DNA of 64,000 nt from Candidatus Zambryskiibacteriota bacterium (GCA_043799105.1 JAZDOB010000012.1:1620-65619); one strand, 5' to 3'. Counted from the stretch's first letter, positions 7,820 to 34,314 are shown. The notes: generated by a model not told the origin, from the sequence alone. Numbers and translations are program-made.

Positions 7820-8791
7820 ATGTCTAACACTTCAAATTTTTATCAAAACTCAATATTTTGGGTGGAGGTGGATAAAATAAAGCCAAACCCCTTTCAGCCA
7901 AGACGTGAATTTGACGAGGATTCTATGAAAGCTCTAGCAGACTCCATAAAGCAATATGGGGTTCTTCAAGCGCTTGTGGTCACTCGAAAGGAAATCATTA
8001 AAGACGACGGTCTGGCGGTGGAGTACGAACTGATTGCCGGTGAACGCCGCTTAAGAGCTTCCAAAATGGCAGGCCTTTCGCAAGTGCCGGTCATCATAAG
8101 GATGGGCGAAGGAGAGGAGACCAAAGACGACTTGATGAAATTAGAGTTGGCAATTATTGAAAATGTCCAAAGAGAAGATTTGAATCCGGTAGAAAGAGCT
8201 CGAGCTTTCAAAAAGTTGGCTGACCAGTTTGGTTTCAAGCATCATCAGATAGCTCAAAAAATAGGCAAGAGCAGAGTATATGTCACCAATTCTATGCGTA
8301 TTTTGGATTTACCGGAAGAGATGCTCACGGCTCTTTCGGAAGGAAAAATAAATGAAGGGCACACAAGACCTCTCCTCATGCTTATTGACAGGCCGGAAGA
8401 ACAGAAAGTTCTTTTTCAGGATATTATGTTGCGCAAAATGAACGTGCGCGATGCTGAGCTCGCGGCGCGCAAGATCGCGATTGAAAGAGTGAGGAAATTT
8501 AATGCTTCGATTGACCCGGAGATTTGTGCTTTGGAAGAAAAGTTTGCGGCAAGTCTTGGCACTCGGGTGAGAATTGAGAAAAAAGAAAATGGCGGCAAGC
8601 TCATGATTGAATTTTTTAGTAACGATGATTTGGAGGATATTTTGAAGATGCTGAATCAAAATCAAGAGGCGATTGATGACAGAACTCCGGAGGAAATAAA
8701 AAAAGCGGAGGATACTCCGATTCCCACCGATGCTGAAGCTATAGCAGGCAAGGAAGAAGATTTATATTCAATCAAAAATTTTTCAATATAA
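7820..8791 (+). CDS. parB: ParB/Spo0J chromosome partitioning protein
   Basis: IKPNPFQPRREFD, GVLQALVV and GERRLRASKMAGL form the ParB N-terminal box plus HTH. No parA in the window. Confidence 0.9.
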   Translation: MSNTSNFYQNSIFWVEVDKIKPNPFQPRREFDEDSMKALADSIKQYGVLQALVVTRKEIIKDDGLAVEYELIAGERRLRASKMAGLSQVPVIIRMGEGEETKDDLMKLELAIIENVQREDLNPVERARAFKKLADQFGFKHHQIAQKIGKSRVYVTNSMRILDLPEEMLTALSEGKINEGHTRPLLMLIDRPEEQKVLFQDIMLRKMNVRDAELAARKIAIERVRKFNASIDPEICALEEKFAASLGTRVRIEKKENGGKLMIEFFSNDDLEDILKMLNQNQEAIDDRTPEEIKKAEDTPIPTDAEAIAGKEEDLYSIKNFSI

Positions 8792-8801
8792 AGAAGTTAT
8801 C

Positions 8802-10193
8802 TTATCCTTTAATAAAATTTCTGATTTGTTTTCTGGCGAGACTGGTCTTAACCCACTCAAGCCATTTGCGTTTTGGGCGTGCATTTTTGCTGATGATAAT
8901 CTCTACAATCTCGTTTCCCTTAAGAACGTTGCCGATAGAACAGAGCTTGCCGTCTATTTTCGCTCCTGACATTTGATTGCCGATATCAGAATGTATGGCA
9001 TAAGCGAAATCAATCGCCGAAGAGCCGGCAGGTAAATCAACCACATCACCCAAGGGAGTGAAGACAAATATTCTTTCACTCAAAAAATCTTTTTTTATTT
9101 CGTTTATGGAATGGGGAAGCATGGCCTGTATCCAGGGGGCAACTTGCTTTTCATTTTTTTCTCCCGCCTTGTAGAGGGCGTGCGCGGCTATCCCGTATTC
9201 TGCCTCTTTGTGCATTTCCTCTGTACGTATCTGTATTTCCACTATACTGCCGTCTCCGGTGAAGACGGTGGTGTGCAGACTTTGATAGCCATTGAGCTTG
9301 GGGAAAGCTATATAATCTTTCATTCTCCCAGGAACTGGTTTCCAGGCGCCGTGGATTATACCGAGCGCTTTGTAGCAGTCTTCTGTTTTTTCCACAACAA
9401 GTCGCATTGCCAAAATATCAGCAATTTTTCCCACATCTTTCTTGTATTTTAGATATTTTTTGTAAAGACTGTACAAGTTTTTAACCCTGTAATCAGAACG
9501 AAAATTAGCAAAACCCGCTTTGACCAGTTCCTTCATCACAGATTTTCTGAATTTTTCCAGACTTTCTATTTTTTCATCATGGCTTCTCTGAAAAACAGAA
9601 GCCATTTCGTTATAACCCTCTTTGTCCACATATGGAAAAGAGAGATCTTCAAGTTCGTGAGAAAGTTTCCTTATGCCCAACCGATAGGCGATGGGCGCGT
9701 AAATTTCCAAAGTCTCTTTTGCTATCCTGTCTTGTTTTTCTTTGGGCACAAAAGAAAGAGTTTTGATGTTGTGCAATCTGTCGCAAAGCTTGACTATAAG
9801 CACCCGCAAGTCTTTGGAAGTGGCGAAAAGGAGTTTACGCAAAGATTCGTTGTGCCGGTCGGCGCCACGATATTTTATCGTTCCCAATTTTGTGACTCCT
9901 TCAACTATGAATGCAACTTCTTTGCCAAATTCTTTTTCCAAGACTTCAATCCCAATGTCAGTATCTTCCAATATATCATGCAAAAAAGCTGCGGCGACGG
10001 ATACAGCGTCCAAACCGAGTTCAGCGATGCTCCTAGCTGTCTCAAACGGGTGGACAAGATATGGCTCCCCACTGTTTCTTTTTTGTCCTTCGTGGGCTTT
10101 TTCCGCAAACTGGTACGCTTTTCTTACGAGATCTTTTTCTTCTCTACTGCTTTTTGTTAAAAGGTCTATTATTTTTTCTAAGTCTTCTTCCAT
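8802..10193 (-). CDS. RelA/SpoT homolog, (p)ppGpp synthetase/hydrolase with TGS domain
   Basis: HD motif LHDILEDT; synthetase motifs YRVKNLYSLYKK, GYQSLHTTV and EIQIRTEEMH; TGS segment IFVFTPLGDVVDLPAGSSAIDFAYAIH. Confidence 0.9.
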   Translation of the reverse strand: MEEDLEKIIDLLTKSSREEKDLVRKAYQFAEKAHEGQKRNSGEPYLVHPFETARSIAELGLDAVSVAAAFLHDILEDTDIGIEVLEKEFGKEVAFIVEGVTKLGTIKYRGADRHNESLRKLLFATSKDLRVLIVKLCDRLHNIKTLSFVPKEKQDRIAKETLEIYAPIAYRLGIRKLSHELEDLSFPYVDKEGYNEMASVFQRSHDEKIESLEKFRKSVMKELVKAGFANFRSDYRVKNLYSLYKKYLKYKKDVGKIADILAMRLVVEKTEDCYKALGIIHGAWKPVPGRMKDYIAFPKLNGYQSLHTTVFTGDGSIVEIQIRTEEMHKEAEYGIAAHALYKAGEKNEKQVAPWIQAMLPHSINEIKKDFLSERIFVFTPLGDVVDLPAGSSAIDFAYAIHSDIGNQMSGAKIDGKLCSIGNVLKGNEIVEIIISKNARPKRKWLEWVKTSLARKQIRNFIKG

Positions 10194-21748: not shown

Positions 21749-22480
21749 ATGGACGGCATAATGCGCTGTAGCAGATATTCTTTTGGGCCAAACCGCCTGC
21801 ATTATTGCGGGCCGGATGCCAACAAAGAATTGCACGATTTGATTGAAAGTGGAGAGAGTGATATTGGTTTATCTGTTTTGTTAAAACAATTCAAAACTCT
21901 TTTCCCTTATCTGCGATACATAGCCAAAGCAAATAATATTTCTGACCCTTTTGACGCGCGGGTGGTTGAAGCTTATTGGCTTGGCAATAGACTTTTGGAA
22001 AACATAGAAAGAAATACTCTATATAGTTTTTTGGTTGACGATCTAAAAGTTAAAGATAAACTGAAGAGCAAAGAGTTTTCTTGGCTGGAGGAGAAAATAA
22101 AGCAAGGAGCGGTGCCACATCATTCTTTTCATATATTAAATGTGTGGCTACAAGATGGTCACGGTGACGGTCTGGAAGCTCTGACGAGAATGGATGAATG
22201 TAGAATTTCCAGCGGGATAGTCACGGCCGTGAAAGGCCCTGAGATAATAGTTTCAACCGAGCCCCTCATATACACGGCTGGTAAATTTGCTCTCGGTGAG
22301 ACGGCCCAGAGAGCCCTAACGAGGCAACTAGAGGCCGAATACGATATAGAGCAGATAAAACCAGGCCAAATTGTCTCAATCCACTGGAGTGTGCCGTGCG
22401 AAGTCATCACTCAAAAACAGGCCGAAACTTTACGCAAATACACCCTAAAAAACATCGCTTTTGCCAATTTAACGATTTAA
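21749..22480 (+). CDS. conserved hypothetical protein with C-terminal HypC/HupF-like domain (inferred)
   Basis: The C-terminus ECRISSGIVTAV...IKPGQIVSIHWSVPCEVITQKQAETL parallels HypC (MCIGVPGQI...GQWVLVHVGFAMSVI). The roughly 150-aa N-terminal domain is unassigned. Confidence 0.45.
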   Translation: MDGIMRCSRYSFGPNRLHYCGPDANKELHDLIESGESDIGLSVLLKQFKTLFPYLRYIAKANNISDPFDARVVEAYWLGNRLLENIERNTLYSFLVDDLKVKDKLKSKEFSWLEEKIKQGAVPHHSFHILNVWLQDGHGDGLEALTRMDECRISSGIVTAVKGPEIIVSTEPLIYTAGKFALGETAQRALTRQLEAEYDIEQIKPGQIVSIHWSVPCEVITQKQAETLRKYTLKNIAFANLTI

Positions 22481-22489
22481 TAAAATAAA

Positions 22490-22861
22490 ATGAAAGTTTT
22501 TGTTTTTGGAAATGAGGATTTAAAGGGGGACAATTTGCCAATAAAAATTTTGCCCAGACTGCAAGATAAATTCCCGGAAATAAAATTTGAAATAAAAGAT
22601 CCAAATGAAGAATGGGAAGTTCCAGAAGAATTAATTATCTTGGACACAGTTGTTGGCATCAAAGATGTGAAAGTTTTTGATAATTTGGAAAAATTTTCAA
22701 AAACACCAAGAGTGGGAATGCATGATTTTGACGCTCTTACTAATCTTCGCTACTTGTGGAAGCTCGGCAAAATAAAAAAAATAAAAATTATAGGAGTACC
22801 AGCTGAAATGAACGAACCAGAAGCGGTTCAAAAAATAATTAAAACTTTAGAAAAACTCTAG
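22490..22861 (+). CDS. hydrogenase maturation endopeptidase (HycI/HoxW-like)
   Basis: MKVFVFGNEDLKGDN (GNxxxGDD-like), ILDTV Asp and GMHDF His match the three metal ligands of hydrogenase maturation proteases. Confidence 0.65.
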   Translation: MKVFVFGNEDLKGDNLPIKILPRLQDKFPEIKFEIKDPNEEWEVPEELIILDTVVGIKDVKVFDNLEKFSKTPRVGMHDFDALTNLRYLWKLGKIKKIKIIGVPAEMNEPEAVQKIIKTLEKL

Positions 22862-22886
22862 AGCGCCTCCTTTCGTCGGCGCCCTA

Positions 22887-23378
22887 CTAAATCCCCTCTC
22901 CTTTTTTTGTTTTTTTCCGCTCCTTCATCACTACTACTCGGCGATGGACCAAAACCTTCTCTCCAACCTTAAGTCCCCGGTGATATGAATTGGAACACGG
23001 AACAGATGATTCCTCGCCAAAAACTACAAAAACAATATTGTTGGTGATGAAATCAACTATGCCGACCCTCACCGCACACTCACTCTCGTGGCCGTGATGG
23101 TATCGCCAGGTCTTATAAACTGTCCCCGACGACCACTCTTTTTTCTCTTTCGCCTTGGACAACGCCAAATGGTTTCTTACTGCATTGGGAAAGTTTTTTC
23201 TCAAAAGAGAAATCTTCGGACTGGTCTTGTTTCGGAGATGTTTTTCCAAGACTTGGAAATCTTTCTCGCTGATTTTGTTAGCGAGCCGCAGGTCTTCCAT
23301 ACAAGGACCGGCAAAACGCAAAAAAAGCAGTAACCCGGACACATACTCTTCTCCGTTTATTTTTCTCGGCATAGACAA
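22887..23378 (-). CDS. hypothetical protein with C-terminal HypC-like domain (inferred), last gene of the hydrogenase operon
   Basis: ECAVRVGIVDFI...LKVGEKVLVHRRVVV follows the same pattern as 21749..22480 and HypC. Confidence 0.4.
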   Translation of the reverse strand: MSMPRKINGEEYVSGLLLFLRFAGPCMEDLRLANKISEKDFQVLEKHLRNKTSPKISLLRKNFPNAVRNHLALSKAKEKKEWSSGTVYKTWRYHHGHESECAVRVGIVDFITNNIVFVVFGEESSVPCSNSYHRGLKVGEKVLVHRRVVVMKERKKTKKGEGI

Positions 23379-23408
23379 GAGCTCCTTTCTTCCAATATAA
23401 CTATACCA

Positions 23409-24758
23409 CTATTCCTCTTTCCATTCAACCTTCAAAAAGTGCGAGGCGCAGGACATGCAGGGATCGTAAGCGCGAATGAACTTTTCAATTTCAAAGCCAA
23501 TCTTGGCTTTGTCCAGCGGCTTGTCCGGCATAGCTTTAGCGGCGTCGGAAGCTTTAGCGGAGTTGGACTTGTCAATTAACTGCTGTACCAACACACCGAT
23601 ATCTCTTTCTATGTTTATCTGATTTTGACCGGTAGGAACCACAACTTCTCCCGACTCTATTTTTCCATCTTTGCCGATAACAATTTTATGATAAAGAGTG
23701 CCGCGTGGCGCTTCGACTACTCCTATGCCGACGGCTCCTTCTTTTTCCTCTCCTTTTATAATTGGTTCGTGGGCAAATTTGTTGTTTGAAAGAATATCGA
23801 TAGACTCGTCTACGCTGTGCAATATTTCAATGGCCTGGGCCAGGTTGTTGTAATAAATATCGGTTGAAGGAAATAGGTTTAAGGCTTCTGTCGCTGATTC
23901 TTTTGTTTTTGAATGCAATTTATCTTTTGACAGATTTATGCGAGCCAGAGCGCCCACCATATAACCCTCGCCCTCGTATTTATATCCCATAGCTTCGGAA
24001 TACGGCACAACCGTGTTTTCAAGATGTGATTTAAAATCTTTTTCTTCGTATCTTTCGCCGGCGCTGGTCACTATGTTGCCGTTTATATAGCCAAAAATAT
24101 CATCCGGCGCCAATGCCATGTATTTTGTTTTTCTATCAAAATGGTCTGGAGCGTTTTTGAAAACTTCTATGAGGCGCAAGACGGCGGGTCTTATATTTTT
24201 TAATTTTTCTATTGCTTCATTTACACCGGCTTCATCTGGAAATTTAAGAAATCCGCCAATGACGGGAAAGGTGGCGTGAACACTTCGGCCGGCAATAAGA
24301 GTTGCCAAAAAGTTTCCTGCTGACTTTACTTCAAAACCATCGTGCAAAAGCTGGTGTTGAATCGGATCGCTTTCATCAAAATCAAGAAAAGCGTCTTTGC
24401 CAAAAATATCGGGCATTGAAAAAAGATAGAGATGAAGAGCATGATCACGGACCATAAGCCCGTGCATGACCAGAGCCCTTAATTTTTTTGTCTGTTCAGA
24501 CGGCTTGATGCCCAGGGCGTTTTCGCAAGCTTCAATACTGCACATAATGTGGGCGTTGGAGCATGTACCGCAAATGCGCGAAAGGTGAGCGGGGATAGAA
24601 TCAATATCTTTGCCTTTCATCGCTTCGGTGAAAAAACGTTTGTATTCGGTGATGGCAAACTTAACATCAGCGACTTTTCCATCAACCACTTTCAAATTTA
24701 ATGTGGCGTTGCCCTCAATTTTTGTAATGTGTTCTAAAGATAAATCAAAACTATGCAT
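23409..24758 (-). CDS. [NiFe]-hydrogenase large subunit (cytosolic group 3-like)
   Basis: N-terminal RICGTCSNAH (RxCGxCxxxH) and C-terminal DPCMSCASH, followed by a 9-aa tail for protease cleavage. Confidence 0.9.
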   Translation of the reverse strand: MHSFDLSLEHITKIEGNATLNLKVVDGKVADVKFAITEYKRFFTEAMKGKDIDSIPAHLSRICGTCSNAHIMCSIEACENALGIKPSEQTKKLRALVMHGLMVRDHALHLYLFSMPDIFGKDAFLDFDESDPIQHQLLHDGFEVKSAGNFLATLIAGRSVHATFPVIGGFLKFPDEAGVNEAIEKLKNIRPAVLRLIEVFKNAPDHFDRKTKYMALAPDDIFGYINGNIVTSAGERYEEKDFKSHLENTVVPYSEAMGYKYEGEGYMVGALARINLSKDKLHSKTKESATEALNLFPSTDIYYNNLAQAIEILHSVDESIDILSNNKFAHEPIIKGEEKEGAVGIGVVEAPRGTLYHKIVIGKDGKIESGEVVVPTGQNQINIERDIGVLVQQLIDKSNSAKASDAAKAMPDKPLDKAKIGFEIEKFIRAYDPCMSCASHFLKVEWKEE

Positions 24759-25233
24759 TTGAGCGTAATTCAGCTACTAATAAATTAACTTTTTCCAAAA
24801 ATACTTCTGGAGTCATAGGACAGCCGGGGATTTCCACGTCTACTTTTATAACATCGGAAACCTTTTTGACTTCAAGAAACATATTAAATTTGGCAACCAA
24901 AAAATCAACACTTTCTTTTTGCTCGGGAGTAAAAGTGTTGCGTTGAGCGGCTGGCAAGCCTGTAATAGCGCAAGCGCCCACAGCCACCACCTTTTTTGAA
25001 ATATTTCTTATTTCTTTTATTTTATTCTCTTGTTCCTGCGATGCCACTGCGCCTTCTATAAAAGCAATATCAAATTCATCAAAAGTATTTTTTGATTTTA
25101 AAACCCTGAAATGGCGAAAATCAAAAATCTTCTTCCATTCCTGCCAGTGGTCGTTCATAATCTCGGTCATCACTATCGTGTTGTCCTCACAACAACTAAA
25201 CGAAAACCACCCGATTTTGATTTTATTTTCCAT
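24751..25233 (-). CDS. [NiFe]-hydrogenase small subunit, minimal (proximal cluster only)
   Basis: The protein is 160 aa. Cys ligands FSCCEDN, GACAITG and PGCP fit the NuoB/HoxY-like 20-kDa family. Confidence 0.8.
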   Translation of the reverse strand: MENKIKIGWFSFSCCEDNTIVMTEIMNDHWQEWKKIFDFRHFRVLKSKNTFDEFDIAFIEGAVASQEQENKIKEIRNISKKVVAVGACAITGLPAAQRNTFTPEQKESVDFLVAKFNMFLEVKKVSDVIKVDVEIPGCPMTPEVFLEKVNLLVAELRSNA

Positions 25234-25255
25234 AAATCCAGTATATCACAGACGT

Positions 25256-25996
25256 TTATTTTAGAGTCCACCCACCGTCAACAACAATTACCTGACCGGT
25301 AATATAGTCTGATTGAGAAGAAGCAAGAAACACCACTGCGCTTGCTATGTCTTCTGGAAGACCGGCTCTTCCCCACGGGATTATTGTTGTCATCTGTTTT
25401 ATTGCTTCATCATTCATTCCTGCGCTTACTCCCGGTGTGTTTATAAGTCCTGGGGCTATGGCATTAACATTTATTTTTTTAGGCGCAAGCTCTAGAGCCA
25501 AAGCCCTGGTAAGCCCGTTTATTCCGCCTTTGGAAGCACAATAATGAGTCAAATTTTCAAAACCAATTAAGGAAGCTATGGAAGAGATAGTTACAATTTT
25601 GCTACCCTCCTTCATAATTTTAGCCGCTGCCTGTGAACAAAAGAAGACGCTTTTTAGATTAATATCAAGCACCTTGTCCCAATCAGATTCGGTGAGCTCC
25701 AAAAACGGTTTGAAGGGAAATATCCCTGCATTATTTACTAAAATATCCAATGCTCCGAACTTTTCTGTCGCCGTTTTGATAAGCGCGTCCACATCTTCTT
25801 TTTTTGAGACATCGCATTCTACTCCCACACATTTTGATTTTGTGAGTTCCTCTATTTCCCTGGCGGAATTTTCGTTTGCTGTCTTGTCCAGGTCGGCCAT
25901 GACCACATTGGCGCCCTCTTTGGCAAACGCTAACGCTATGCCGTACCCGATGCCTTTGGCTGCGCCCGTGACCACGGCTGTTTTATTTTTAAACAT
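25256..25996 (-). CDS. short-chain dehydrogenase/reductase (FabG-like)
   Basis: TGAAKGIGYG, NNAG and YCASKGG (YxxxK), plus PG..T. Confidence 0.85.
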   Translation of the reverse strand: MFKNKTAVVTGAAKGIGYGIALAFAKEGANVVMADLDKTANENSAREIEELTKSKCVGVECDVSKKEDVDALIKTATEKFGALDILVNNAGIFPFKPFLELTESDWDKVLDINLKSVFFCSQAAAKIMKEGSKIVTISSIASLIGFENLTHYCASKGGINGLTRALALELAPKKINVNAIAPGLINTPGVSAGMNDEAIKQMTTIIPWGRAGLPEDIASAVVFLASSQSDYITGQVIVVDGGWTLK

Positions 25997-26036
25997 AGTA
26001 CAAAAATAACTTATAATGCTATAATTATACTACTTT

Positions 26037-27482
26037 ATGAAAGATATATTCACTATAGGTGTGGGAGGGGCGGCGGGAGAGGGAGTCAAAAAGACCGGTA
26101 TTGATATTGGCAACTTTTTGAGTAGCTTGGGATTTCAGATTTATTTGTCTGTGGATTACCCATCGCTTATTCGTGGCGGGCACAATTTCGTCCGTTTAAC
26201 TGTCGGGGGTGAAAAAGTTTGGAATGATTATTCTAAACTTGATATTTTGGTTGCTTTAAACGAAGAAACCAAAGAGCTCCACAAAAACGAAATGAAAGAG
26301 AACGCTGTTGTACTTTCGGGGTTATCTACGGCTGAGGCCATAGAAAAGATAAAATCTGTTTTAAAAGAGAGAAATTTCGTGCCAGCCGACTCCGCCGAAG
26401 GCTCTGTCGTGCCAAAGAAGGAACTAATTGACGGAAATACGGCTTTTGCGAGAGGTCTGCAGGCGGCTGGGTTGGATTTTTATATTTCTTATCCAATGAC
26501 ACCGGCCACTTCCATTTTGCATTATTTGGCAAGCAAGCAAACCAAAGAAGGTTTGAAAGTCATACAGCCCGAAAACGAGATTGGTACTATCAATATGGCT
26601 CTTGGGGCGGTTTATGCCGGCAAGAGGGCGGCTGTCGGGACGGCGACCGGAGGGTTCGCTTTGATGCAAGAGGCGTTTAGTTTTGCCGGAATGGCCGAGC
26701 TCCCGCTCGTGGTGGCAGTAGCGCAGAGGCAGGCGCCGGCGACCGGGGTGCCGACACGCTCTTCCCAATCTGATTTGCGTTTTGCTATTCATGCTGGCCA
26801 TGGCGAATTTCCCCGGATTGTTTTGGCGCCCGGAGACCCGGAGGAAAGTTTCAAAACCGGAGCAGAGGCTCTCAATCTTGCCTGGAAGTTTAGAATACCA
26901 GTCATCGTCCTCATGGATAAAATTTTGTCTGAACATATGATGACGAGTAGCCTTGACGAAAGTTCTATTTCTGTGGAATTAAATAAAAGCATGATTTTCC
27001 CAAGTACACCGGACAAAGTGATAAAAGTGACGAGTTATGAGCACAGCGAGGATGGTATTACTACCGACAATGCAGAAGAAGTTAAAGAAGCATTTGACAA
27101 GAGATTTGCCAAAAATGATGAAATAGGAATGGAAATGCGAAGTAGAGAAACAGTTAAAATATTTGGCGACTCAACAAACGAAAACGCAGTTGTGTTTTTT
27201 GGTTCAACCAAAGGTCCAGTGTTGGAAGCGTCAAAATATTTTGATAAGCCGGCCAAACTCGTTCAGATAATTTGGCTTGAACCGTTTGATACTGAAAAAG
27301 TGAAAAAAGAATTAGAAAGTGCAAAAAACATAGTTTGCGTTGAAGGAAATCATGATGGCCAACTGGCATCATTGATAAGAGAAAGGACGGGAATTGAAAT
27401 TAAGGACAGAATTTTGAGATATGATTCATTGCCGTTTGATCCGACGGAATTAGCCAAACAAATAAACACATTATGGAAATAA
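26037..27482 (+). CDS. 2-oxoacid:ferredoxin oxidoreductase, fused gamma-alpha subunit
   Basis: The N-terminal gamma-like part is GVGGAAGEGVKKTG..YPSLIRGGHNFVRLTV..DILVALN. The alpha part follows: IDGNTAFARG..YPMTPATS. Confidence 0.85.
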   Translation: MKDIFTIGVGGAAGEGVKKTGIDIGNFLSSLGFQIYLSVDYPSLIRGGHNFVRLTVGGEKVWNDYSKLDILVALNEETKELHKNEMKENAVVLSGLSTAEAIEKIKSVLKERNFVPADSAEGSVVPKKELIDGNTAFARGLQAAGLDFYISYPMTPATSILHYLASKQTKEGLKVIQPENEIGTINMALGAVYAGKRAAVGTATGGFALMQEAFSFAGMAELPLVVAVAQRQAPATGVPTRSSQSDLRFAIHAGHGEFPRIVLAPGDPEESFKTGAEALNLAWKFRIPVIVLMDKILSEHMMTSSLDESSISVELNKSMIFPSTPDKVIKVTSYEHSEDGITTDNAEEVKEAFDKRFAKNDEIGMEMRSRETVKIFGDSTNENAVVFFGSTKGPVLEASKYFDKPAKLVQIIWLEPFDTEKVKKELESAKNIVCVEGNHDGQLASLIRERTGIEIKDRILRYDSLPFDPTELAKQINTLWK

Positions 27483-28279
27483 AAGATTTAGCTACAAAAG
27501 CAAAGATAACGTGGTGTCCGGGTTGTCCAAATTCGCAGATTTTGGTTTCTTTCAGAAAAACAATTACAGAGTTGGTAAACGAAGAAAAATTAAAACCTGA
27601 AAATCTGGTGGCTTTTGCCGGTATTGGCTGTCACGGCAAGATATCAGATTATCTGAATATAAACTCGTTTACTTCCCTTCACGGACGGCTCATTCCCGCT
27701 ATGACTGGCGCCAAATGCGCCAATCCGGCTTTGACTATTGTTGGTTTTTCGGGGGATGGGGATTCTCTGGATGAGGGTATCGAGCATTTAATTCACGCTG
27801 CCAAAAGAAATTCCGATATAAATCTTTTTATTCACGATAACCGTGTCTTTGCTTTAACCACAGGCCAGTTTAATGCCCTGAGCCCCAAGGGTTTTAAAAG
27901 CAAATCGGCTCCATTTGGGAGCGTTGAAGAACCGTTCAATCCTCTCCTTCTTATGCTTTCCGCTGGCGCCACTTTCGTGGCAAGAACATATGCCGGAGAT
28001 TTCGAAGGTACAAAAAAAATAATGCAGGCCGCTATAGCCCACAAGGGATTTTCGTTTGTAGATATTATCCAGCCGTGCATAACGTTTTTTGACACCAGAG
28101 ATTATTTTAAGGAGAGAATTTATTGGATAGATGAAAACTTTCCAAAGAATGATTTGAAAATGGCCATGGAAAAGGTCTCTGAAAAAACAAACGACCTGCC
28201 TGCGCAGACAGGAAAAGTTCCTCTTGGCATATTTTATCAAGTGGAAAAACCGACTTTTGAAGAAGAGTTATACAAATAA
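27473..28279 (+). CDS. 2-oxoacid:ferredoxin oxidoreductase beta subunit (TPP-binding)
   Basis: WCPGCPN, GIGCHGK and GDGDSLDEG..HDNRVFALTTGQ. Confidence 0.9.
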   Translation: MEIKDLATKAKITWCPGCPNSQILVSFRKTITELVNEEKLKPENLVAFAGIGCHGKISDYLNINSFTSLHGRLIPAMTGAKCANPALTIVGFSGDGDSLDEGIEHLIHAAKRNSDINLFIHDNRVFALTTGQFNALSPKGFKSKSAPFGSVEEPFNPLLLMLSAGATFVARTYAGDFEGTKKIMQAAIAHKGFSFVDIIQPCITFFDTRDYFKERIYWIDENFPKNDLKMAMEKVSEKTNDLPAQTGKVPLGIFYQVEKPTFEEELYK

Positions 28280-28281
28280 TT

Positions 28282-30321
28282 ATGGATTTAGAAAAATTTT
28301 TTAATCCAGAATCTATTGCGATAATAGGAGCGTCAAACGACAAAAATAAAATCGGCTATGCGCTGATGAAAAATCTGCTTGATGGGAAAAAAAGAAAAAT
28401 TTATCCCGTCACGCTTTCTGAGAAAGAAATATTAGAGATTCCCGCCTTTAAATCGATTTTGGATATTCCCGAGACGGTTGATCTGGCTCTCATTGCTGTC
28501 CGTGCCGATATTGTGTCGCAAGTTTTGACCGATTGCGGTAAAAAACAGATACCAAATGCCATCATCATTTCTTCCGGTTTTAAAGAAATCGGTTCTGCAG
28601 GGAAAGAGCTTGAAGAAAAAGTTGCCGATATTGCGCGAGAGCAAAACATTACACTTTTGGGCCCGAATTGTTTCGGTGTTATTGATACCAAAAACGATTT
28701 CAATGCTTCTTTTTCGGCTCAAAAGTCGCTTCCTTCCGGTAAAATTTCTTTTCTGTCCCAATCGGGGGCTTTGGGTTCTGCGCTTATAGATTGGGCTAAC
28801 GGCCAAGGGGTTGGTATTTCCAAATTTATAAGTTTGGGCAATGAAAGTTGTCTTACGGAGATTGAGTTTCTCGAATATTTGGAAAACGATCCGGACACAT
28901 CTGCGATTTTAATGTATCTTGAAAATGTAAAAAACGGACCAAAGTTTTTGGAGACCGTTGGTAGGATTACACCCAAAAAACCGATTGTCATCATAAAAGC
29001 GGGCATGGGTAGCCACGGAAATTTGGCCATTATGTCGCATACCGGCGCGCTTGCTCCGGAAGCCTCTGTGTTTATTGCAGCATGTAAACAAGCGGGAGCC
29101 GCAACAGTCTCATCCCTGCGGGCGTTTTTCCATCTGGTTAAAGTTTTGCCACAGGTGTTGGATGTGAGCACGCCGGTTCAGCGACTTATCATATTAACAA
29201 ATGGCGGCGGTCCCTCTGTCGTTGCGGCTGATCTTGTAGACCGCTCTCGCTCCCTCTCTTTGTCGGTCTTGAGCGAGGATATGAAAGAATCTTTGCGAAA
29301 AGTTTTGCCTCCTATGGCAGCGATTGGAAATCCGGTTGATATCATCGGTGATGCTTTGGCTGAGCGGTATGATAAGGCTTTGGAAATTTTATCCAGCGAT
29401 GAAAATACCGATGGAATTATAGTTATACTAACTCCGCAAATGATGACACAAGCCGAGGAGACGGCAAAAGTTTTGGCTAAATACAAAAATAAGAAAAAAA
29501 TATTTCCGATTTTCACCGGCGGTTCTTCAGTACAAGCCGGACGCGATGAACTTATTAAATCAGGAATGGCTTACTTCACCTTCCCGAGAGATGTCGTAGA
29601 GAGCTTGGATTATCTGGCAAAAGACATCCCCAAAATAAAATCACCATACGGGCATCACGGAGATTCAACAGAATCAGTATCAGAAAACGGGAAAATGATG
29701 GAGTTTTCAGGTGCGCTAAATTTGCTTTCCAAATATAATATTTCTGTCAGCGGGAAATTTGTAAAAGATAAAGATGAGTTGTACAACGTAGTTAATGAAT
29801 ATGATGGAAATGTTTTTGCCATGAAAATTATTTCTCCCGATATTGTTCATAAAACTGATAGTGGCGCGGTGGCTTTAAATATAAAAAATATAGAAGAGGC
29901 AAAGGAGGCGTGGGACAAAATGCGTGAAAAAAACAAAAAAGTAAATATCGAAGGTGTATTAGTCCAAAAAATGGAAAAGGGGAGAGAAATAATAATCGGC
30001 ATGAAGCGCAATATCACATTTGGCCCGACAATTTTGTTTGGACTGGGAGGCATTTTGGCCGAAGCAATCAAAGACACGGCGCTTCGCATCGCTCCATTCT
30101 CAAAAGAGGAAGCATTAAAAATGATGCAGGAAATAAAAGGTATTAAAATTTTGCAAGGTATGCGCGGCGAACCGTCAGTAAACTTTGATGCTCTCGCTGA
30201 CATTATTGTTAACCTTTCCCACCTCGCTCTCGAACATACAGAAATAAAAGAAATAGACCTCAACCCCGTTATCTGTTCTGAGAATTCCGCTACAATCGTA
30301 GATGCTAGAATAATGATTTAA
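28282..30321 (+). CDS. acetate--CoA ligase (ADP-forming), fused alpha-beta
   Basis: FFNPESIAIIGAS (CoA-binding), GPNCFGV and SQSGALG (phosphohistidine-loop region MSHTGAL), plus a C-terminal ATP-grasp domain. Confidence 0.85.
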   Translation: MDLEKFFNPESIAIIGASNDKNKIGYALMKNLLDGKKRKIYPVTLSEKEILEIPAFKSILDIPETVDLALIAVRADIVSQVLTDCGKKQIPNAIIISSGFKEIGSAGKELEEKVADIAREQNITLLGPNCFGVIDTKNDFNASFSAQKSLPSGKISFLSQSGALGSALIDWANGQGVGISKFISLGNESCLTEIEFLEYLENDPDTSAILMYLENVKNGPKFLETVGRITPKKPIVIIKAGMGSHGNLAIMSHTGALAPEASVFIAACKQAGAATVSSLRAFFHLVKVLPQVLDVSTPVQRLIILTNGGGPSVVAADLVDRSRSLSLSVLSEDMKESLRKVLPPMAAIGNPVDIIGDALAERYDKALEILSSDENTDGIIVILTPQMMTQAEETAKVLAKYKNKKKIFPIFTGGSSVQAGRDELIKSGMAYFTFPRDVVESLDYLAKDIPKIKSPYGHHGDSTESVSENGKMMEFSGALNLLSKYNISVSGKFVKDKDELYNVVNEYDGNVFAMKIISPDIVHKTDSGAVALNIKNIEEAKEAWDKMREKNKKVNIEGVLVQKMEKGREIIIGMKRNITFGPTILFGLGGILAEAIKDTALRIAPFSKEEALKMMQEIKGIKILQGMRGEPSVNFDALADIIVNLSHLALEHTEIKEIDLNPVICSENSATIVDARIMI

Positions 30322-31537
30322 GCTCGAAGTTTGGATCAGAAAGTTCTGATTCATGGCCCACGACTTTGAAATCAAGCTCAATGAGTTTGTTTATTGGTTG
30401 CAAATCTTGAGTACGGTTTATGAAAGTAGCGCCGATGATTTCGTTGTCCTTATCTACTATAATGCGAGCGAAAGAGCCAGATTCCGGCGAGCCCCTCCTT
30501 ATTACATTACAAGTTGGCTTACTACAAGCGTCTCCCGACACGGCGATATTCAATCCAAAACCAATTGATGAATAAAAAGAGACCATTTTAAACGGCTCGT
30601 GATTTCCCATCATATTTTTTGCTACAGTACGGCCTTGGGTTTGGGCATTAACCCAATTTCCAAGCTGAACTCTTTCGCCCAAAACCAAGTCATTAAACTC
30701 GGCCACATCTCCTGCCGCATAAATATCTGGAATGTTTGTTTCCAGATATTCATTTGCCAAAATTCCTCTGCCCGTTTCCACCCCAGCTTCTTTAATCCAA
30801 TCTAGATGACACTCAAGGCCGATGCCTATGAGCGCAAGCTGGCAGGGAATTTGTGTGCCGTCTTTCAAAATCACACCCTCAATATTTTCATTGCCAATAA
30901 TTTCTGAAACTTCACTTTCTCTTAAAATTTTTACCCCACCTTTTTCCATCGCCACCCCAATCATTTTTCCGGATTCTTCATCTAAAAGAGGATACCAGTA
31001 ATACGGCTCGCGCATGACGAGTGTCACTTCCAGCCCGGCCAGGCGCATCATTTCGCACATTTCAAAGCTTACAAATCCGGAGCCAATGGCTATTGCATGC
31101 TTGGCGCTTTTTACATTTTTTATCAATTCCTCTGCTTCTCTCAAATCTCGCAGGTAGCAGATGCCTTTTTTATCTGCTCCTGGAATGTTCCAACGCCCCG
31201 CTTCTCCCCCTGTGGCGAGCAAAAGTTTCTCATATTTTAAAATTTTTCCATCAGAAAGTTCTATTGTTTTATCTGCGCTGTTTAGTTTTTTAGCAAGAAC
31301 ATTTCCTATAAAATCTATTTTATTTTCTGTGTACCATTTCTCTTCACGGAGCCAGACACTATCAAAAGGTATTTTGCCCAAGAAAAAATTTGGCTTGGAG
31401 AGCATTATGCGGGAATACATTCGCGGCTCGTCGGAAACGATAGCGATACTCCCGTCTCTATCTTTTTGGCGTAAAGTCTCCGCGGCTGTTGTGCCAGCTA
31501 CCCCTCCGCCGATTATTAAGTATTTGTAACTGTCCAT
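30305..31537 (-). CDS. FAD/NAD(P)-dependent pyridine nucleotide-disulfide family oxidoreductase (ferredoxin/rubredoxin reductase-like)
   Basis: YLIIGGGVAGTTAAE, a second dinucleotide fold AIAIGSGFVSFE, and AAGDVAEF. Its ATG overlaps the ferredoxin stop. Confidence 0.75.
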   Translation of the reverse strand: MDSYKYLIIGGGVAGTTAAETLRQKDRDGSIAIVSDEPRMYSRIMLSKPNFFLGKIPFDSVWLREEKWYTENKIDFIGNVLAKKLNSADKTIELSDGKILKYEKLLLATGGEAGRWNIPGADKKGICYLRDLREAEELIKNVKSAKHAIAIGSGFVSFEMCEMMRLAGLEVTLVMREPYYWYPLLDEESGKMIGVAMEKGGVKILRESEVSEIIGNENIEGVILKDGTQIPCQLALIGIGLECHLDWIKEAGVETGRGILANEYLETNIPDIYAAGDVAEFNDLVLGERVQLGNWVNAQTQGRTVAKNMMGNHEPFKMVSFYSSIGFGLNIAVSGDACSKPTCNVIRRGSPESGSFARIIVDKDNEIIGATFINRTQDLQPINKLIELDFKVVGHESELSDPNFELKSLF

Positions 31538-31806
31538 TATTTTGGAAACACCTGCTTGCCTTCTTTATCAAACAAAAATATGGCTTTGGTTGGGCAAGAT
31601 TCGGCCGACATCATCAAAGTAGCATCATCCGCCGCGTTTGCGCCTGCGCTGGCGTTTGTAATAACCGCTTTATTTTCATTATCAAGCTCCCAAGTCTCTC
31701 CCGAAACGGCTATGCACGAAGCGGCGCCGATACATAAATCTCTATCAACAACTATCTTACTAATATTTGAACCTTCTTTATTGCGGGCATATTCTTTTGT
31801 TGCCAT
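31537..31806 (-). CDS. small ferredoxin, three-Cys type (probable [3Fe-4S]/[4Fe-4S])
   Basis: VDRDLCIGAASCIAV...ESCPTKAI gives CxxAxxC...CP, with the middle Cys replaced by Ala. Confidence 0.65.
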   Translation of the reverse strand: MATKEYARNKEGSNISKIVVDRDLCIGAASCIAVSGETWELDNENKAVITNASAGANAADDATLMMSAESCPTKAIFLFDKEGKQVFPK

Positions 31807-31812
31807 AATTTT

Positions 31813-31857
31813 AACCTCACCCCTTGCCCCTCTCCTAAATGCAGGAGAGGGGTTTGG
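31813..31857. repeat. Family A element, single-hairpin copy, intergenic
   Basis: aacctcacccc ttg cccctctcc taaatgca ggagagggg tttgg. Confidence 0.75.
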
Positions 31858-31868
31858 AAATAATTTTA

Positions 31869-32102
31869 TTAATTAATAACGACTTCTTTAACTTCCGGGA
31901 CTTCTTCTTTTATCATTCCTCCGAGCATTCCGCTAAACGTCTCATCTGCCATACCGCACCCAACGCAAGCCCCGCTTACTTTAAGTTTAACAATTTTATC
32001 TTTTATTTCCACCAAAGAAACATCACCTCCGTGCATTTGAATATACGGCCTCATCTTCTCTATAATTTTTTGTACTTTTTTTTGCATGTGAGAATTATAC
32101 AC
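31869..32102 (-). CDS. NifU C-terminal (Nfu-type) Fe-S cluster carrier
   Basis: IRPYIQMHGGDVSLVEI..GACVGCGM (CxxC). Confidence 0.8.
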   Translation of the reverse strand: MYNSHMQKKVQKIIEKMRPYIQMHGGDVSLVEIKDKIVKLKVSGACVGCGMADETFSGMLGGMIKEEVPEVKEVVIN

Positions 32103-32108
32103 TATTTT

Positions 32109-32231
32109 TCTAACCTTCTCCCTTCCTCTCCCTTACCTTAAGGGAGAGGTGACTGCATTCTGGAGTTCAACTGTTTAATAAATGTGTTGCGTGGTTCCCT
32201 CCTTAAAGTAAGGAGGGTTAGGGAGGTTAGA
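32109..32231. repeat. Family A palindromic element (two hairpins), intergenic
   Basis: Outer arms tctaaccttctccc / gggaggttaga. Hairpins ctcccttaccttaagggag and ccctccttaaagtaaggaggg. Confidence 0.85.
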
Positions 32232-32257: not shown

Positions 32258-32917
32258 TCATTTCCCAAAATATTTTTCTTTATAAAATCTAATCAACTCT
32301 TCTACTTTAGGCAAACACTGCGGATAACCGATGCCGACTTTGGTGCGTTTTTGGACGGCGGCGAGAGTGGTGGCGCCTTCCAAGACGGCTTCTTCAATAT
32401 CGGCTTCTGTTGTGTTTGTGTTGGGATCCAAAATTTGAGCGCCGTCTACAACTATACGGCTGAATTGTTTTGTTTTTTTGAACCAGTCATTGAGGGCGGC
32501 TCGCAAAGCTTTGTCTCCCAAAACCGAGCAGTGGATTTTGCGATCAGGAAGTCCACCCAATCTTTTTATAATATCCTGCGGTTTTATCTGCAAGGCTTTG
32601 TCTATTTTCATACCGCCTTTTTCGGTGACCATAACGGAAAGCATAGAAGTAGAGGCGATAGCCGAAGCGCAACCAAATGTGCGCCATTTGAGTTCTTTTA
32701 TCTTGTCATTTTTTTTGTCTATTTTGAGCCACACCCTCATAACATCTCCGCAAGCGGGGGAACCGACAACTCCTTCACCGTCATATTTTGCTTTCCTCGG
32801 ATCTTCCAAAAGCAAATTTTTTGGTTTGAAAAAATGCTCACGCACTTGTTTTGTGTAAGCCCAAGAATCGCCGGTGTATTTATTAACGATGTCTGGTTTT
32901 TTATTTTGTTTTTTCAT
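32258..32917 (-). CDS. nifU: NifU/IscU-type Fe-S scaffold with BFD-like [2Fe-2S] domain
   Basis: GSPACGDVMRVWL, FGCASAIASTS and KIHCSVLG are the three scaffold Cys. A C-terminal BFD-like segment is present. Confidence 0.85.
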   Translation of the reverse strand: MKKQNKKPDIVNKYTGDSWAYTKQVREHFFKPKNLLLEDPRKAKYDGEGVVGSPACGDVMRVWLKIDKKNDKIKELKWRTFGCASAIASTSMLSVMVTEKGGMKIDKALQIKPQDIIKRLGGLPDRKIHCSVLGDKALRAALNDWFKKTKQFSRIVVDGAQILDPNTNTTEADIEEAVLEGATTLAAVQKRTKVGIGYPQCLPKVEELIRFYKEKYFGK

Positions 32918-34314
32918 TTTTTTGCTTGTCTCGCCGTAGCTTTTAGCGAAGGCGGATTATTTTTTCTTAAAAAGTGTAGCGTTTGTCCACCGACGAAGGC
33001 TCGCGGATCTGAAATTTTCTTTCTCTGGTTTAGACTGACATCGAGAGGCGAAATGTTTCTTAATATTTGGACGACTTTTGGTAAATGTTTAAGAACATAT
33101 TTTATATCTTGAATCGTGTTTTCTCTGCCAAGAGTGAAGCGAATACTGCCGTGAATATGTTCGTATGGACGACCGAGAGCCGTGAGGATATATGATGGCT
33201 CTAAACTTTGTGAATTGCAGGCGGAGCCGGTGGAGACCATTATACCAAGTTCGTCGAGATAAAGAAGCATCGCTTCGCCTTCAACATCTAAAATTGATAC
33301 GTTCAAAAAGCCGGGCAGGCGTTTATCGGGATGGCCGTTCAAGACGATTTTGGGTATGGATTTGAAAATTCCTTTTTCAAGAGTGTCGCGCATTTTTTTA
33401 ATCCGTGCCGATTCTTTTTTGCTTTCTTTACGGATGAGTTCTAGAGCTTTGGCGAAACCGACGATGCCGGGGACGTTTTCGGTACCGCTTCGCAGGTTGC
33501 CCTGTTGACCACCGCCAAAAATAATGGGGGAGATTTTTGTCCCTCTTTTTACATAAAGAGCGCCAACACCTTTTGGTCCGTAAATTTTGTGGGACGAAAT
33601 GGTCATCATATCCACACCAAGCTTGTTCATATCAATATCCATATATCCGGCGACTTGGCTGGCATCAGTATGGAAGTAGGGGACCTCACCCCAACCCCTC
33701 TCCTTGGCAAGGAGAGGGGCAAGGGGAGAGGACTTCTTAAATTCCTTGATTATTTTTGAAATTTCAGAAATTGGCTGGATAGTGCCGGTTTCGCTGTCGG
33801 CGTAAGTTATGGAAACTAGAATTGTTTTTTCGTTCAATTCTTTTTTGAATTCGTCCAAATCGATTAATCCATTTTTGCGGACTGGTAATTTTACAATTTC
33901 AAAACCCCGCCCGACCGAGTCATTCGGGCAGGCTTCTTTTTCCAAAACATCACAAACGGCCAAGATGCCCTTGTGCTCTATTTGTGACACGATTATTTTG
34001 GAAGCCAAAGTCGGACTTTGAACTGCCCCGGTCCCAAAAGTCCGACTTTGGCTTCCCCGGGCAACACCAAAAATGGCTAAATTGTCAGCTTCTGTTGCTG
34101 AACCGGTATAAAATATTTCATCGGGCCGGCAATTTAGAATTCCAGCTATTGTCTGGGAGGATTTGTCTATAGCATCTTTGGCTCTTCTGCTTAAACTATA
34201 CAAATTTGACGGGTTACCAAACTCTTTTTTGAAATACGGCAACATAACGGAAAAAACTCTCGGGTCAAGAGCTGTTGTGCCAGCGTGGTCAAGATAAATT
34301 CGTCTTTTGGACAT
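32914..34314 (-). CDS. nifS: cysteine desulfurase (NifS/IscS) with three in-frame repeat insertions
   Basis: IYLDHAGTT, SQIEHKG, SSHKIYGPKG (PLP Lys) and SGSACNS (active Cys). Confidence 0.9.
   Translation of the reverse strand: MSKRRIYLDHAGTTALDPRVFSVMLPYFKKEFGNPSNLYSLSRRAKDAIDKSSQTIAGILNCRPDEIFYTGSATEADNLAIFGVARGSQSRTFGTGAVQSPTLASKIIVSQIEHKGILAVCDVLEKEACPNDSVGRGFEIVKLPVRKNGLIDLDEFKKELNEKTILVSITYADSETGTIQPISEISKIIKEFKKSSPLAPLLAKERGWGEVPYFHTDASQVAGYMDIDMNKLGVDMMTISSHKIYGPKGVGALYVKRGTKISPIIFGGGQQGNLRSGTENVPGIVGFAKALELIRKESKKESARIKKMRDTLEKGIFKSIPKIVLNGHPDKRLPGFLNVSILDVEGEAMLLYLDELGIMVSTGSACNSQSLEPSYILTALGRPYEHIHGSIRFTLGRENTIQDIKYVLKHLPKVVQILRNISPLDVSLNQRKKISDPRAFVGGQTLHFLRKNNPPSLKATARQAKK
33684..33731. 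repeat. Family A element, single hairpin, 48 nt in frame inside nifS
   Basis: cctcacccc aa cccctctcc ttggcaa ggagagggg caa ggggagagg. Encodes SSPLAPLLAKERGWGEV on the minus strand. Confidence 0.8.
34000..34056. repeat. 57-nt perfect palindrome (20-bp arms) in frame inside nifS
   Basis: ggaagccaaagtcggacttt-gaactgccccggtccca-aaagtccgactttggcttcc. At 19 codons it encodes GSQSRTFGTGAVQSPTLAS. Confidence 0.9.

Follow-up and report, generated by a model that had tools for sequence, protein, structure and literature searches.

A truncated [NiFe] hydrogenase from a Patescibacteria genome: a FAD reductase and a three-cysteine ferredoxin as candidate electron partners, and an accessory short-chain dehydrogenase

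How does a [NiFe] hydrogenase that is encoded with neither a diaphorase nor additional Fe-S subunits exchange electrons with its surroundings? This question is raised by a locus in a stretch of 64,000 nt from a Candidatus Zambryskiibacteriota bacterium (GCA_043799105.1 JAZDOB010000012.1:1620-65619), hereafter the window, in which positions are counted from the first letter. A first-pass annotation had described, on the minus strand, a tightly spaced string of genes for a short-chain dehydrogenase/reductase (SDR), a hydrogenase small subunit, a large subunit and a further open reading frame (ORF), with the SDR as the only redox partner in the apparent operon. Our analysis reproduced all ORFs of this string and their spacings: the SDR and small-subunit genes are 22 nt apart, the genes for the small and large subunits overlap by 8 nt, and about 30 nt separate the large subunit from the next ORF (Table 1). 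The host genome is a metagenome-assembled genome (MAG) of Patescibacteria (candidate phyla radiation, CPR) of 543 kb in 32 contigs, 88% complete.

The dimer had been reported to lack adjacent partners of the HydBG, HoxEFU, MvhD or FrhB type, and a genome-wide search for diaphorase and Fe-S subunit families had been proposed. We carried out this search with the profiles PF01512, PF17179, PF10418 and PF02662, and the observation holds beyond the locus: HoxF/NuoF (PF01512) has no match in the host genome or in four relatives; HydB (PF17179, Fer4_22) has none at E ≤ 0.01 in the host genome, G001, G152, G146 and G091; HydG (PF10418, DHODB_Fe-S_bind) has none in the host genome and a single 13.5-bit match, at chance level, in G001; and MvhD (PF02662) was not found in any of the five genomes searched. 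Neither the HoxF of group 3d nor the MvhD of the group 3c Mvh hydrogenases was found to accompany the enzyme. As a positive control, the CPR genome G250 gave a PF10418 match at a distance of 3 kb upstream from its hyd1 large subunit. The most likely electron partners are a ferredoxin and a FAD reductase encoded about 5–6 kb upstream of the dimer on the same strand, not the adjoining SDR. Taken as a whole, we think it rather probable that the window encodes a [NiFe] enzyme of the hyd2 clade, in which a small subunit with a single Fe-S cluster is served by the FAD reductase and a three-cysteine (3-Cys) ferredoxin, the SDR being an accessory. Besides the missing partner families, this reading draws on gene identities, gene fusions, synteny and co-occurrence.

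The strongest evidence for placing a putative flavoprotein of the NAD(P)H type on the truncated small subunit is provided by the fusions. A search among longer relatives of the small subunit identified 14 protein clusters (570–629 aa) in which a Pyr_redox_2 + Reductase_C reductase is N-terminal to a hyd2-type Oxidored_q6 small subunit. One of these fusion proteins (P0125) shares 55% identity with the window reductase along its full 410 residues and 74% with the window small subunit, and its gene stands in the order NifS-NifU-NifU-ferredoxin-[reductase::small]-large, with a DUF6390 gene downstream. The same search returned other architectures. In the P0141-P0153 set the small subunit is fused to an FNR-like flavoprotein (FAD_binding_6 + NAD_binding_1) in 5 clusters and to a thioredoxin-reductase-like flavoprotein in 8, one of which bears an Aenigmarchaeota (archaeal) source name; three clusters (P0131, P0154 and P0155) are small::large single-chain forms.

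For the analysis of synteny, the window proteins were mapped by tblastn onto a first sample of 18 hyd2 loci and then onto 80 loci from species-representative genomes. The reductase is directly upstream of, and co-oriented with, the small and large subunits in 9/18 loci of the first sample, preceded by the ferredoxin wherever the contig reaches, and in five to six of these nine the gap or overlap between reductase and small subunit is 15 nt or less. Of the 80 representative loci, 25 have the reductase immediately upstream in the same orientation; it lies 5–7 kb upstream on the same strand in 10 others, 9 of which carry in between a cassette of 2-oxoacid:ferredoxin oxidoreductase (OFOR) and ADP-forming acetyl-CoA synthetase (ACD); and the ferredoxin/reductase pair is found 4–5 kb downstream in 5, the remaining unassigned loci having too little flanking sequence. 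In most relatives that carry the pair it is co-operonic with the dimer. As to co-occurrence, reductase orthologues of at least 46% identity are present in 16 of the 251 genomes that make up our sample of the host's class, and 14 of these 16 carry hyd2; weaker paralogues (43% identity or less) are scattered over other genomes of the class. The first-pass annotation had noticed the 3-Cys ferredoxin and the FAD reductase and assigned them to another operon. They do lie about 5–6 kb away, but they were set aside wrongly, being conserved partners; of the two explanations offered at that time, an unconventional electron path or partners encoded elsewhere, the second is the one favoured by synteny, co-occurrence and the 14 fusion clusters.

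Several observations weigh against this assignment. Neither ferredoxin nor reductase occurs within 7 kb of the dimer in 16 of about 67 assessable loci, and three divergent hyd2 genomes possess no close reductase orthologue. The SDR is kept in co-orientation in at least four related loci, at 69–86% identity, and may have a functional link to the hydrogenase. HypD is absent from all 17 hyd2 genomes of the class sample and was also not found in G001 (0/18), and HypE and the HypF zinc finger were each found in 0/18 hyd2 genomes, most of the genomes searched for Hyp genes being 94–100% complete. The hyd2 enzymes are known from sequence, and the sequence gives neither the pyridine-nucleotide specificity nor the catalytic direction. 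A complex prediction for the large subunit, small subunit and ferredoxin, with the ferredoxin as partner, returned 0.18, 0.66 and 0.17 against a mark of 0.32 and is used here on neither side.

Table 1. Positions in the window of the hydrogenase genes, their putative partners and the neighbouring genes
Gene product	Position	Strand	Length and family assignment
SDR	25996..25256	-	246 aa; adh_short_C2, E 7e-80
Hydrogenase small subunit, truncated	25233..24751	-	160 aa; Oxidored_q6 (PF01058), E 7e-21
[NiFe]-hydrogenase large subunit, hyd2 type	24758..23409	-	449 aa; PF00374 (NiFeSe_Hases), E 4e-30
HypC-fold protein	23378..22887	-	163-aa ORF; no Pfam or NCBIfam match
Putative diverged hydrogenase maturation endopeptidase	22490..22861	+	123 aa; PF01750 HycI, E 0.005; convergent with large subunit
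DUF6390 protein	21749..22480	+	243 aa; PF19927, E 1e-54
FAD-dependent NAD(P)H:ferredoxin reductase	31537..30305	-	410 aa; Pyr_redox_2, E 2e-54, + Reductase_C
3-Cys mono-cluster ferredoxin	31806..31537	-	89 aa; Fer4_15/Fer4_13
OFOR alpha	26037-27482	+	POR_N; TIGR03710
OFOR beta	27473-28279	+	TPP_enzyme_C/PFO_beta_C; NF008820
ACD	28282-30321	+	TIGR02717
NifU-like scaffold	32917..32258	-	NifU_N + Fer2_BFD; upstream of ferredoxin
Class-V aminotransferase/cysteine desulfurase	34314..32914	-	Aminotran_5; upstream of ferredoxin

The large subunit has its nearest homologues (67–88% identity) in metagenomes and in MAGs that bear the names Patescibacteria, Paceibacterota, Zambryskibacteria or Vogelbacteria. 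In the class sample, matches to the large subunit form two identity classes, one of 17 genomes at 46–75% (hyd2) and one of about 48 genomes at 29–39% (hyd1-like). The hyd2 clade is widespread, with 556 confirmed loci in species-representative genomes. It was introduced by Jaffe et al. (2020, BMC Biol 18:69, PMC7304191) as a CPR clade of group-3b-related hydrogenases, and according to the sections of that paper on hyd2 its small subunits are consistently truncated (mean 164 aa), beta and gamma subunits are absent, a hypC-like family is found nearby, and a subset of the loci is accompanied by a FAD protein of family PF07992 and by a small Fe-S protein. The same sections state that the "function remains uncertain" and leave the partners open; reductase::small-subunit fusions, the absence of HypDEF and DUF6390 go unmentioned there. 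By match to these published traits the window enzyme fits the hyd2 clade, since it combines a CPR host, a divergent 3b-like large subunit, a single-cluster small subunit of 160 aa and the lack of adjacent beta and gamma subunits, and the three kinds of neighbour (hypC-like family, PF07992, small Fe-S protein) accompany it as well. The enzyme type is thus already published, and the window adds a further member in which nothing essential is different; what distinguishes its sub-lineage from the hyd2 described in those sections is the OFOR/ACD cassette and the SDR, placed between the ferredoxin/reductase pair and the dimer. As to whether a two-subunit form had already been characterised, a point raised in the first-pass annotation, the clade has indeed been described, though from sequence.

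The large subunit carries the L1 motif RICGTCSNAH (residues 61–70) and the L2 motif DPCMSCASH (residues 432–440), the latter followed by a short conserved tail, FLKVEWKEE. It belongs to the [NiFe] large-subunit family (PF00374, 105.6 bits against a cut-off of 25.8), and 19 orthologues show both metal-binding motifs without variation. Its best NCBIfam matches are the sulfhydrogenase families HydA/ShyA (NF040832/NF040828), at 229/227 bits far under the cut-offs of 880/700, and the closest solved structures are those of group 3b (5yxy, 201 bits; 9nez, 195 bits), ahead of Mvh (147 bits) and Hox (96 bits). A lineage-specific low-complexity insertion, SNSAKASDAAKAMPDKPL, occupies residues ~397–415 (window 23500-23570) in the variable loop before L2; it coincides with a short DNA repeat, is present in a shorter version in L003 and L005, and is missing from most orthologues.

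The small subunit had been judged fit for a proximal cluster only, and our results agree: it contains exactly four Cys residues (C14, C15, C88 and C138) and no C-terminal cluster domain, and it aligns to residues 1–155 of the 261–266-aa HydD of P. furiosus, the domain with the medial and distal clusters being the part that is missing. Among 19 orthologues C14, C88 and C138 are invariant, and C15 is present in 17. The median length of the small-subunit ORF over 75 loci is 167 aa. In nearly all loci the genes for the small and large subunits are adjacent; a few have an intervening gene, and a gene for a DHO_dh-family flavoprotein stands between them in one genome, G091 (loci L041, at 8276-9391, and L088). 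Ligands one and two of the proximal cluster are adjacent (CC), an arrangement also seen in NuoB of complex I, whereas group 3 small subunits have CxxC; the two most divergent orthologues have CDEGC at this place. A hybrid group-3/group-4 origin, considered on the basis of the NuoB-like motif, was rejected, as both subunits score best against group 3 proteins.

Comparison with characterised enzymes places the window dimer nearest to the group 3b HydABGD hydrogenases of P. furiosus and T. kodakarensis (9nez, 9e15 and 5yxy), which are the best-scoring solved or curated relatives of both subunits and with which it shares a cytoplasmic location and a presumed link to NAD(P). It differs from them in having neither HydB nor HydG, in the absence of about 100 aa of C-terminal medial/distal cluster domain from the small subunit, and in the first cluster motif (CC, not CxxC), and it remains far from the equivalog cut-off. 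The features by which group 3b would be recognised, namely the equivalog score, the beta and gamma subunits and a three-cluster small subunit of ~260 aa, are all lacking. The group 3d HoxEFUYH enzyme (5xf9) resembles the window system in its short small subunit (HoxY, 189 aa) and in coupling H2 to NAD(P) through a separate flavoprotein diaphorase; however, the window large subunit is far more distant from its counterpart there, no HoxF-type PF01512 protein is encoded, and the flavoprotein is a FAD enzyme with the glutathione-reductase fold rather than an FMN enzyme of the NuoF type.

The reductase is closest in structure to ferredoxin and rubredoxin reductases (3fg2, 3lxd, BphA4 and putidaredoxin reductase), and its best NCBIfam match is PadH. 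PadH is the NAD-linked FAD subunit of phenylglyoxylate:NAD+ oxidoreductase, an enzyme of the OFOR type, and thereby provides a precedent for a flavoprotein of this kind coupling an Fe-S enzyme to NAD. In the chains of class I P450s and ring dioxygenases, putidaredoxin reductase/putidaredoxin and BphA4/BphA3 are of the same families as the window reductase and ferredoxin; in contrast to these chains and to PadH, the putative chain of the window would end in a hydrogenase instead of an oxygenase or an OFOR. C25, C31 and C71 of the ferredoxin are invariant in 9 orthologues (pattern CxxAxxC...CP), and its cluster is probably [3Fe-4S]. The order NifS-NifU-ferredoxin-reductase recurs in L047, L058, L059 and L060, which suggests that Fe-S assembly genes travel with the putative hydrogenase partners. 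The genome's only other ferredoxin, likewise a mono-cluster protein, of 74 aa with four Cys residues (G000, contig C8, 19872-20096; L056, 6873-7097), is encoded directly after a gene for a B12-binding radical SAM protein within a glycosyltransferase cluster.

The electron path, like the catalytic direction and co-transcription, we infer from these data. H2 or H+ would be handled at the Ni-Fe site, and the electrons would pass through an exposed proximal [4Fe-4S] cluster, which would exchange them with the FAD reductase and the 3-Cys ferredoxin; these two would stand in for the diaphorase made up of HydB/HydG or HoxEFU and would connect H2/H+ with NAD(P)H/NAD(P)+. In the lineage of the window, OFOR and ACD appear to be an insertion that separates the reductase from the hydrogenase. 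The cassette is also present in L001, L003, L005, L039, L057, L058, L060 and L061, and in about 20 of the 80 representative loci. The resulting island could convert a 2-oxoacid to acyl-CoA, CO2 and reduced ferredoxin, and the acyl-CoA to an acid with formation of ATP, while the electrons would be disposed of as H2 or exchanged with NAD(P)H through the reductase.

The cassette also lends itself to another explanation, in which the hydrogenase depends purely on ferredoxin: ferredoxin reduced by the OFOR would be re-oxidised at the exposed proximal cluster with production of H2, and the reductase would act separately, unbound to the enzyme, as a ferredoxin:NAD(P)+ oxidoreductase. It is consistent with the head-to-head arrangement of OFOR and ACD with the hydrogenase operon in the sub-clade of the window, and with the make-up of the OFOR, whose two subunits include no ferredoxin and which must rely on a soluble one; the 3-Cys protein is the sole ferredoxin linked to the island. 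We nevertheless consider it unlikely, because the 14 clusters in which the reductase is fused to the small subunit place the flavoprotein on the enzyme, because most hyd2 loci with the order ferredoxin-reductase-small-large have no OFOR nearby, and because ferredoxins of the [3Fe-4S] type usually do not have a potential low enough for unaided H2 evolution. The preferred scheme, with FAD reductase and 3-Cys ferredoxin as partners, would provide a widespread enzyme with a testable wiring (H2 <-> proximal cluster <-> FAD reductase/3-Cys ferredoxin <-> NAD(P)H) beside an ATP-yielding module that converts 2-oxoacids to acids, and it bears on the redox balance of ultra-small symbiotic bacteria and on their share in groundwater hydrogen cycling.

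What, then, is the role of the SDR? The protein is a classical NAD(P)-dependent SDR, with the motifs VTGAAKGIG (TGxxxGxG), NNAG and S..YCASK, and its best NCBIfam match is the glucose-1-dehydrogenase subfamily NF005559 (268 bits, cut-off 215). In the first sample of 18 loci an SDR occupies the position upstream of the small subunit in the window only, and it was a search with the SDR itself that revealed a sub-lineage: in L060, L061 and the P0177 contig, orthologues with 69–86% identity precede the small subunit by 20–80 nt in the same orientation, and on the P0006 contig the corresponding position is taken by a 246-aa SDR that an IS200-type transposase separates from the small subunit. Nine SDR matches fall on contigs of the same size as contigs with matches to the hyd2 large subunit. 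Among the 80 representative loci none has an SDR co-oriented upstream of the small subunit, the SDR of L070 being adjacent but divergent, and the close relatives L001, L003, L005, L039, L057 and L058 have no SDR at that position. No SDR is joined to the small subunit in any cluster of the fusion search. Judging by this distribution, the locus carries the SDR as an accessory gene specific to the lineage; a reading of the gene as incidental was dropped, as it recurs in a narrow sub-lineage. It is probably co-transcribed with the hydrogenase here.

As a redox partner of the hydrogenase, the role in which the first-pass annotation had cast it, the SDR does not stand: it is confined to the narrow sub-lineage, absent from that position in all 80 representative loci and never fused to the small subunit. 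The idea that it takes the place of a diaphorase as direct electron partner of the small subunit could appeal only to co-orientation, the 22-nt gap and persistence in a handful of related loci. The SDR, a classical enzyme of hydride transfer with a Rossmann fold, has neither a flavin nor an Fe-S site, three flavoprotein families are found fused to the small subunit and the SDR never, nearly all hyd2 loci are without it, and the genome also encodes the conserved ferredoxin/reductase pair. A direct role in electron transfer is thus very unlikely, and the replacement of a diaphorase by the SDR is hardly credible. At most, the SDR would share a pool of NAD(P)H with the hydrogenase, which is possible, and would take up no electrons from an Fe-S cluster.

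Such a metabolic coupling can be given a more specific form, in which the SDR, recruited in this sub-lineage, oxidises a sugar or an alcohol and the NAD(P)H formed is vented as H2 by the reductase and the hydrogenase. Such a role could coexist with the preferred assignment of partners. It would account for the co-oriented orthologues in L060, L061 and the P0177 contig and for the SDR of the same length in the P0006 contig; other dehydrogenases are found nearby elsewhere (acyl-CoA dehydrogenase in L049, DHO_dh in L041, 2-hydroxyacid dehydrogenase in L061), and the interval from the SDR to the small subunit contains no terminator-like site, in a scan that was at chance level overall (over positions 22400-32200, 21 promoter-like sites where 19.2 were expected, and 13 terminator-like sites where 10.5 were). 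Set against this are the lack of a co-oriented SDR in the slot in 80/80 representative loci and in the six close relatives listed above, the divergent orientation in L070, and the fact that the slot also takes an IS200-type transposase or unrelated genes; on balance we regard the coupling as somewhat unlikely.

The slot upstream of the small subunit is variable in general, containing nothing, a transposase, an acyl-CoA dehydrogenase or unrelated genes. An IS200/IS605-type Y1 transposase of 217 aa is found directly upstream of the small subunit in L003 (6842-7495), in L005 (6823-7476) and in the P0006 contig, there between SDR and small subunit, and its presence in several close relatives suggests that the slot is an insertion hot spot. 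The acyl-CoA dehydrogenase is encoded directly upstream of the small subunit in L049 (6774-8630, genome G009), and in L061 the 2-hydroxyacid dehydrogenase gene is next to that of the SDR.

The more surprising point is the lack of HypD, HypE and HypF, and if the enzyme is active, the assembly of its [NiFe] cofactor has a route not yet known. HypC (PF01455) is present in 2/18 hyd2 genomes and HypA was not found in 5/5 genomes searched, so that the canonical set of HypC, HypD, HypE and HypF is not encoded. In the class sample HypD occurs in 9/251 genomes, all of them carriers of the hyd1 type. One may ask whether the protein is a working hydrogenase at all: without HypCDEF no Ni-Fe(CN)2CO site would be made, and the dimer could be a relic or support a different metal chemistry, as the counts for HypD, HypE and HypF (0/18 each) and HypA (0/5) in mostly 94–100% complete genomes would suggest. 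Yet the four metal-binding Cys residues, the EAPRG motif and at least 100 other columns are invariant across 19 large-subunit orthologues at 47–81% identity, an endopeptidase homologue and HypC-fold proteins are conserved alongside, and the clade is as widespread as its 556 confirmed loci indicate. We therefore find it quite improbable that the enzyme is not a working hydrogenase. About 39 of the ~48 hyd1-type carriers of the class sample (29–39% identity) are without HypD as well; thus, the gap in the Hyp machinery is not confined to hyd2.

Candidates for an alternative machinery are encoded next to the dimer. The 123-aa protein, whose match to PF01750 is weak (17.2 bits, cut-off 23), appears to be a diverged homologue of HycI-like maturation endopeptidases: 10/17 members of its family individually match HycI (best E 2e-4), the sole family to recur. 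Its invariant residues are FGN..D14, D52 and H78-D79, among which D14, D52 and H78 may correspond to the acidic/Asp/His set of metal ligands, and the gene stands beside that of the large subunit in nearly all loci with enough flanking sequence. DUF6390 is present in 42/251 genomes of the class sample, 40 of which are hydrogenase carriers, and in 0/9 HypD carriers, so that DUF6390 and HypD never occur together there. Only the C-terminal barrel of its AlphaFold 2 (AF2) model was usable (poor model, mean predicted local distance difference test score, pLDDT, 63); the C-terminal third is HypC-like, with HypC 2z1c_B as the best fold match in the PDB (E 4e-3), and a weak PF01455 match lies inside the DUF6390 orthologue of G091. 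Sequence profiles of the P0004 family, of DUF6390 and of the 123-aa protease family retrieved nothing meaningful from the PDB, and our literature searches returned no paper on DUF6390 and none on CPR together with hypD.

These observations can be joined with the electron path into a broader proposal, which we put forward tentatively and hold to be less than an even chance: hyd2 would be a distinct, unclassified [NiFe] subgroup that combines a diaphorase of the FAD-reductase type and a 3-Cys ferredoxin with active-site assembly independent of HypD, HypE and HypF. In this proposal the reductase and the ferredoxin may dock on the single-cluster, tandem-Cys small subunit, and the endopeptidase, DUF6390 and the HypC-fold proteins, together with an EamA permease in relatives, may aid assembly. 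If true, it would amount to an undescribed maturation route.

The last gene of the string, coding for the 163-aa protein, had been called HypC-like. This description is right for the fold but not for family membership, as the protein has no PF01455 match. Its AF2 model (pLDDT 83) consists of an N-terminal domain of five helices and a C-terminal five-strand barrel, and the four best Foldseek matches of the barrel in the PDB are all HypC structures (3vyt, 3vys, 3vyr and 2z1c), with root-mean-square deviations of 1.2–1.9 A, target template-modelling (TM) scores of 0.64–0.91 and E about 0.01. HypC proteins have an N-terminal Cys directly after the Met; here the Cys with which the barrel begins lies within the chain, at residue 99 of the 163-aa ORF (position 96 in the 160-aa version that was folded), and L003 does not conserve it. 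Homologues were detected by tblastn in 3 of the first 18 loci and in about 11 of the 80. Comparison of the family (161–163 aa) with DUF6390 by hhalign gave a collinear, weak match (E 7e-4, probability 27%), and the 163-aa protein is probably a short paralogue of DUF6390.

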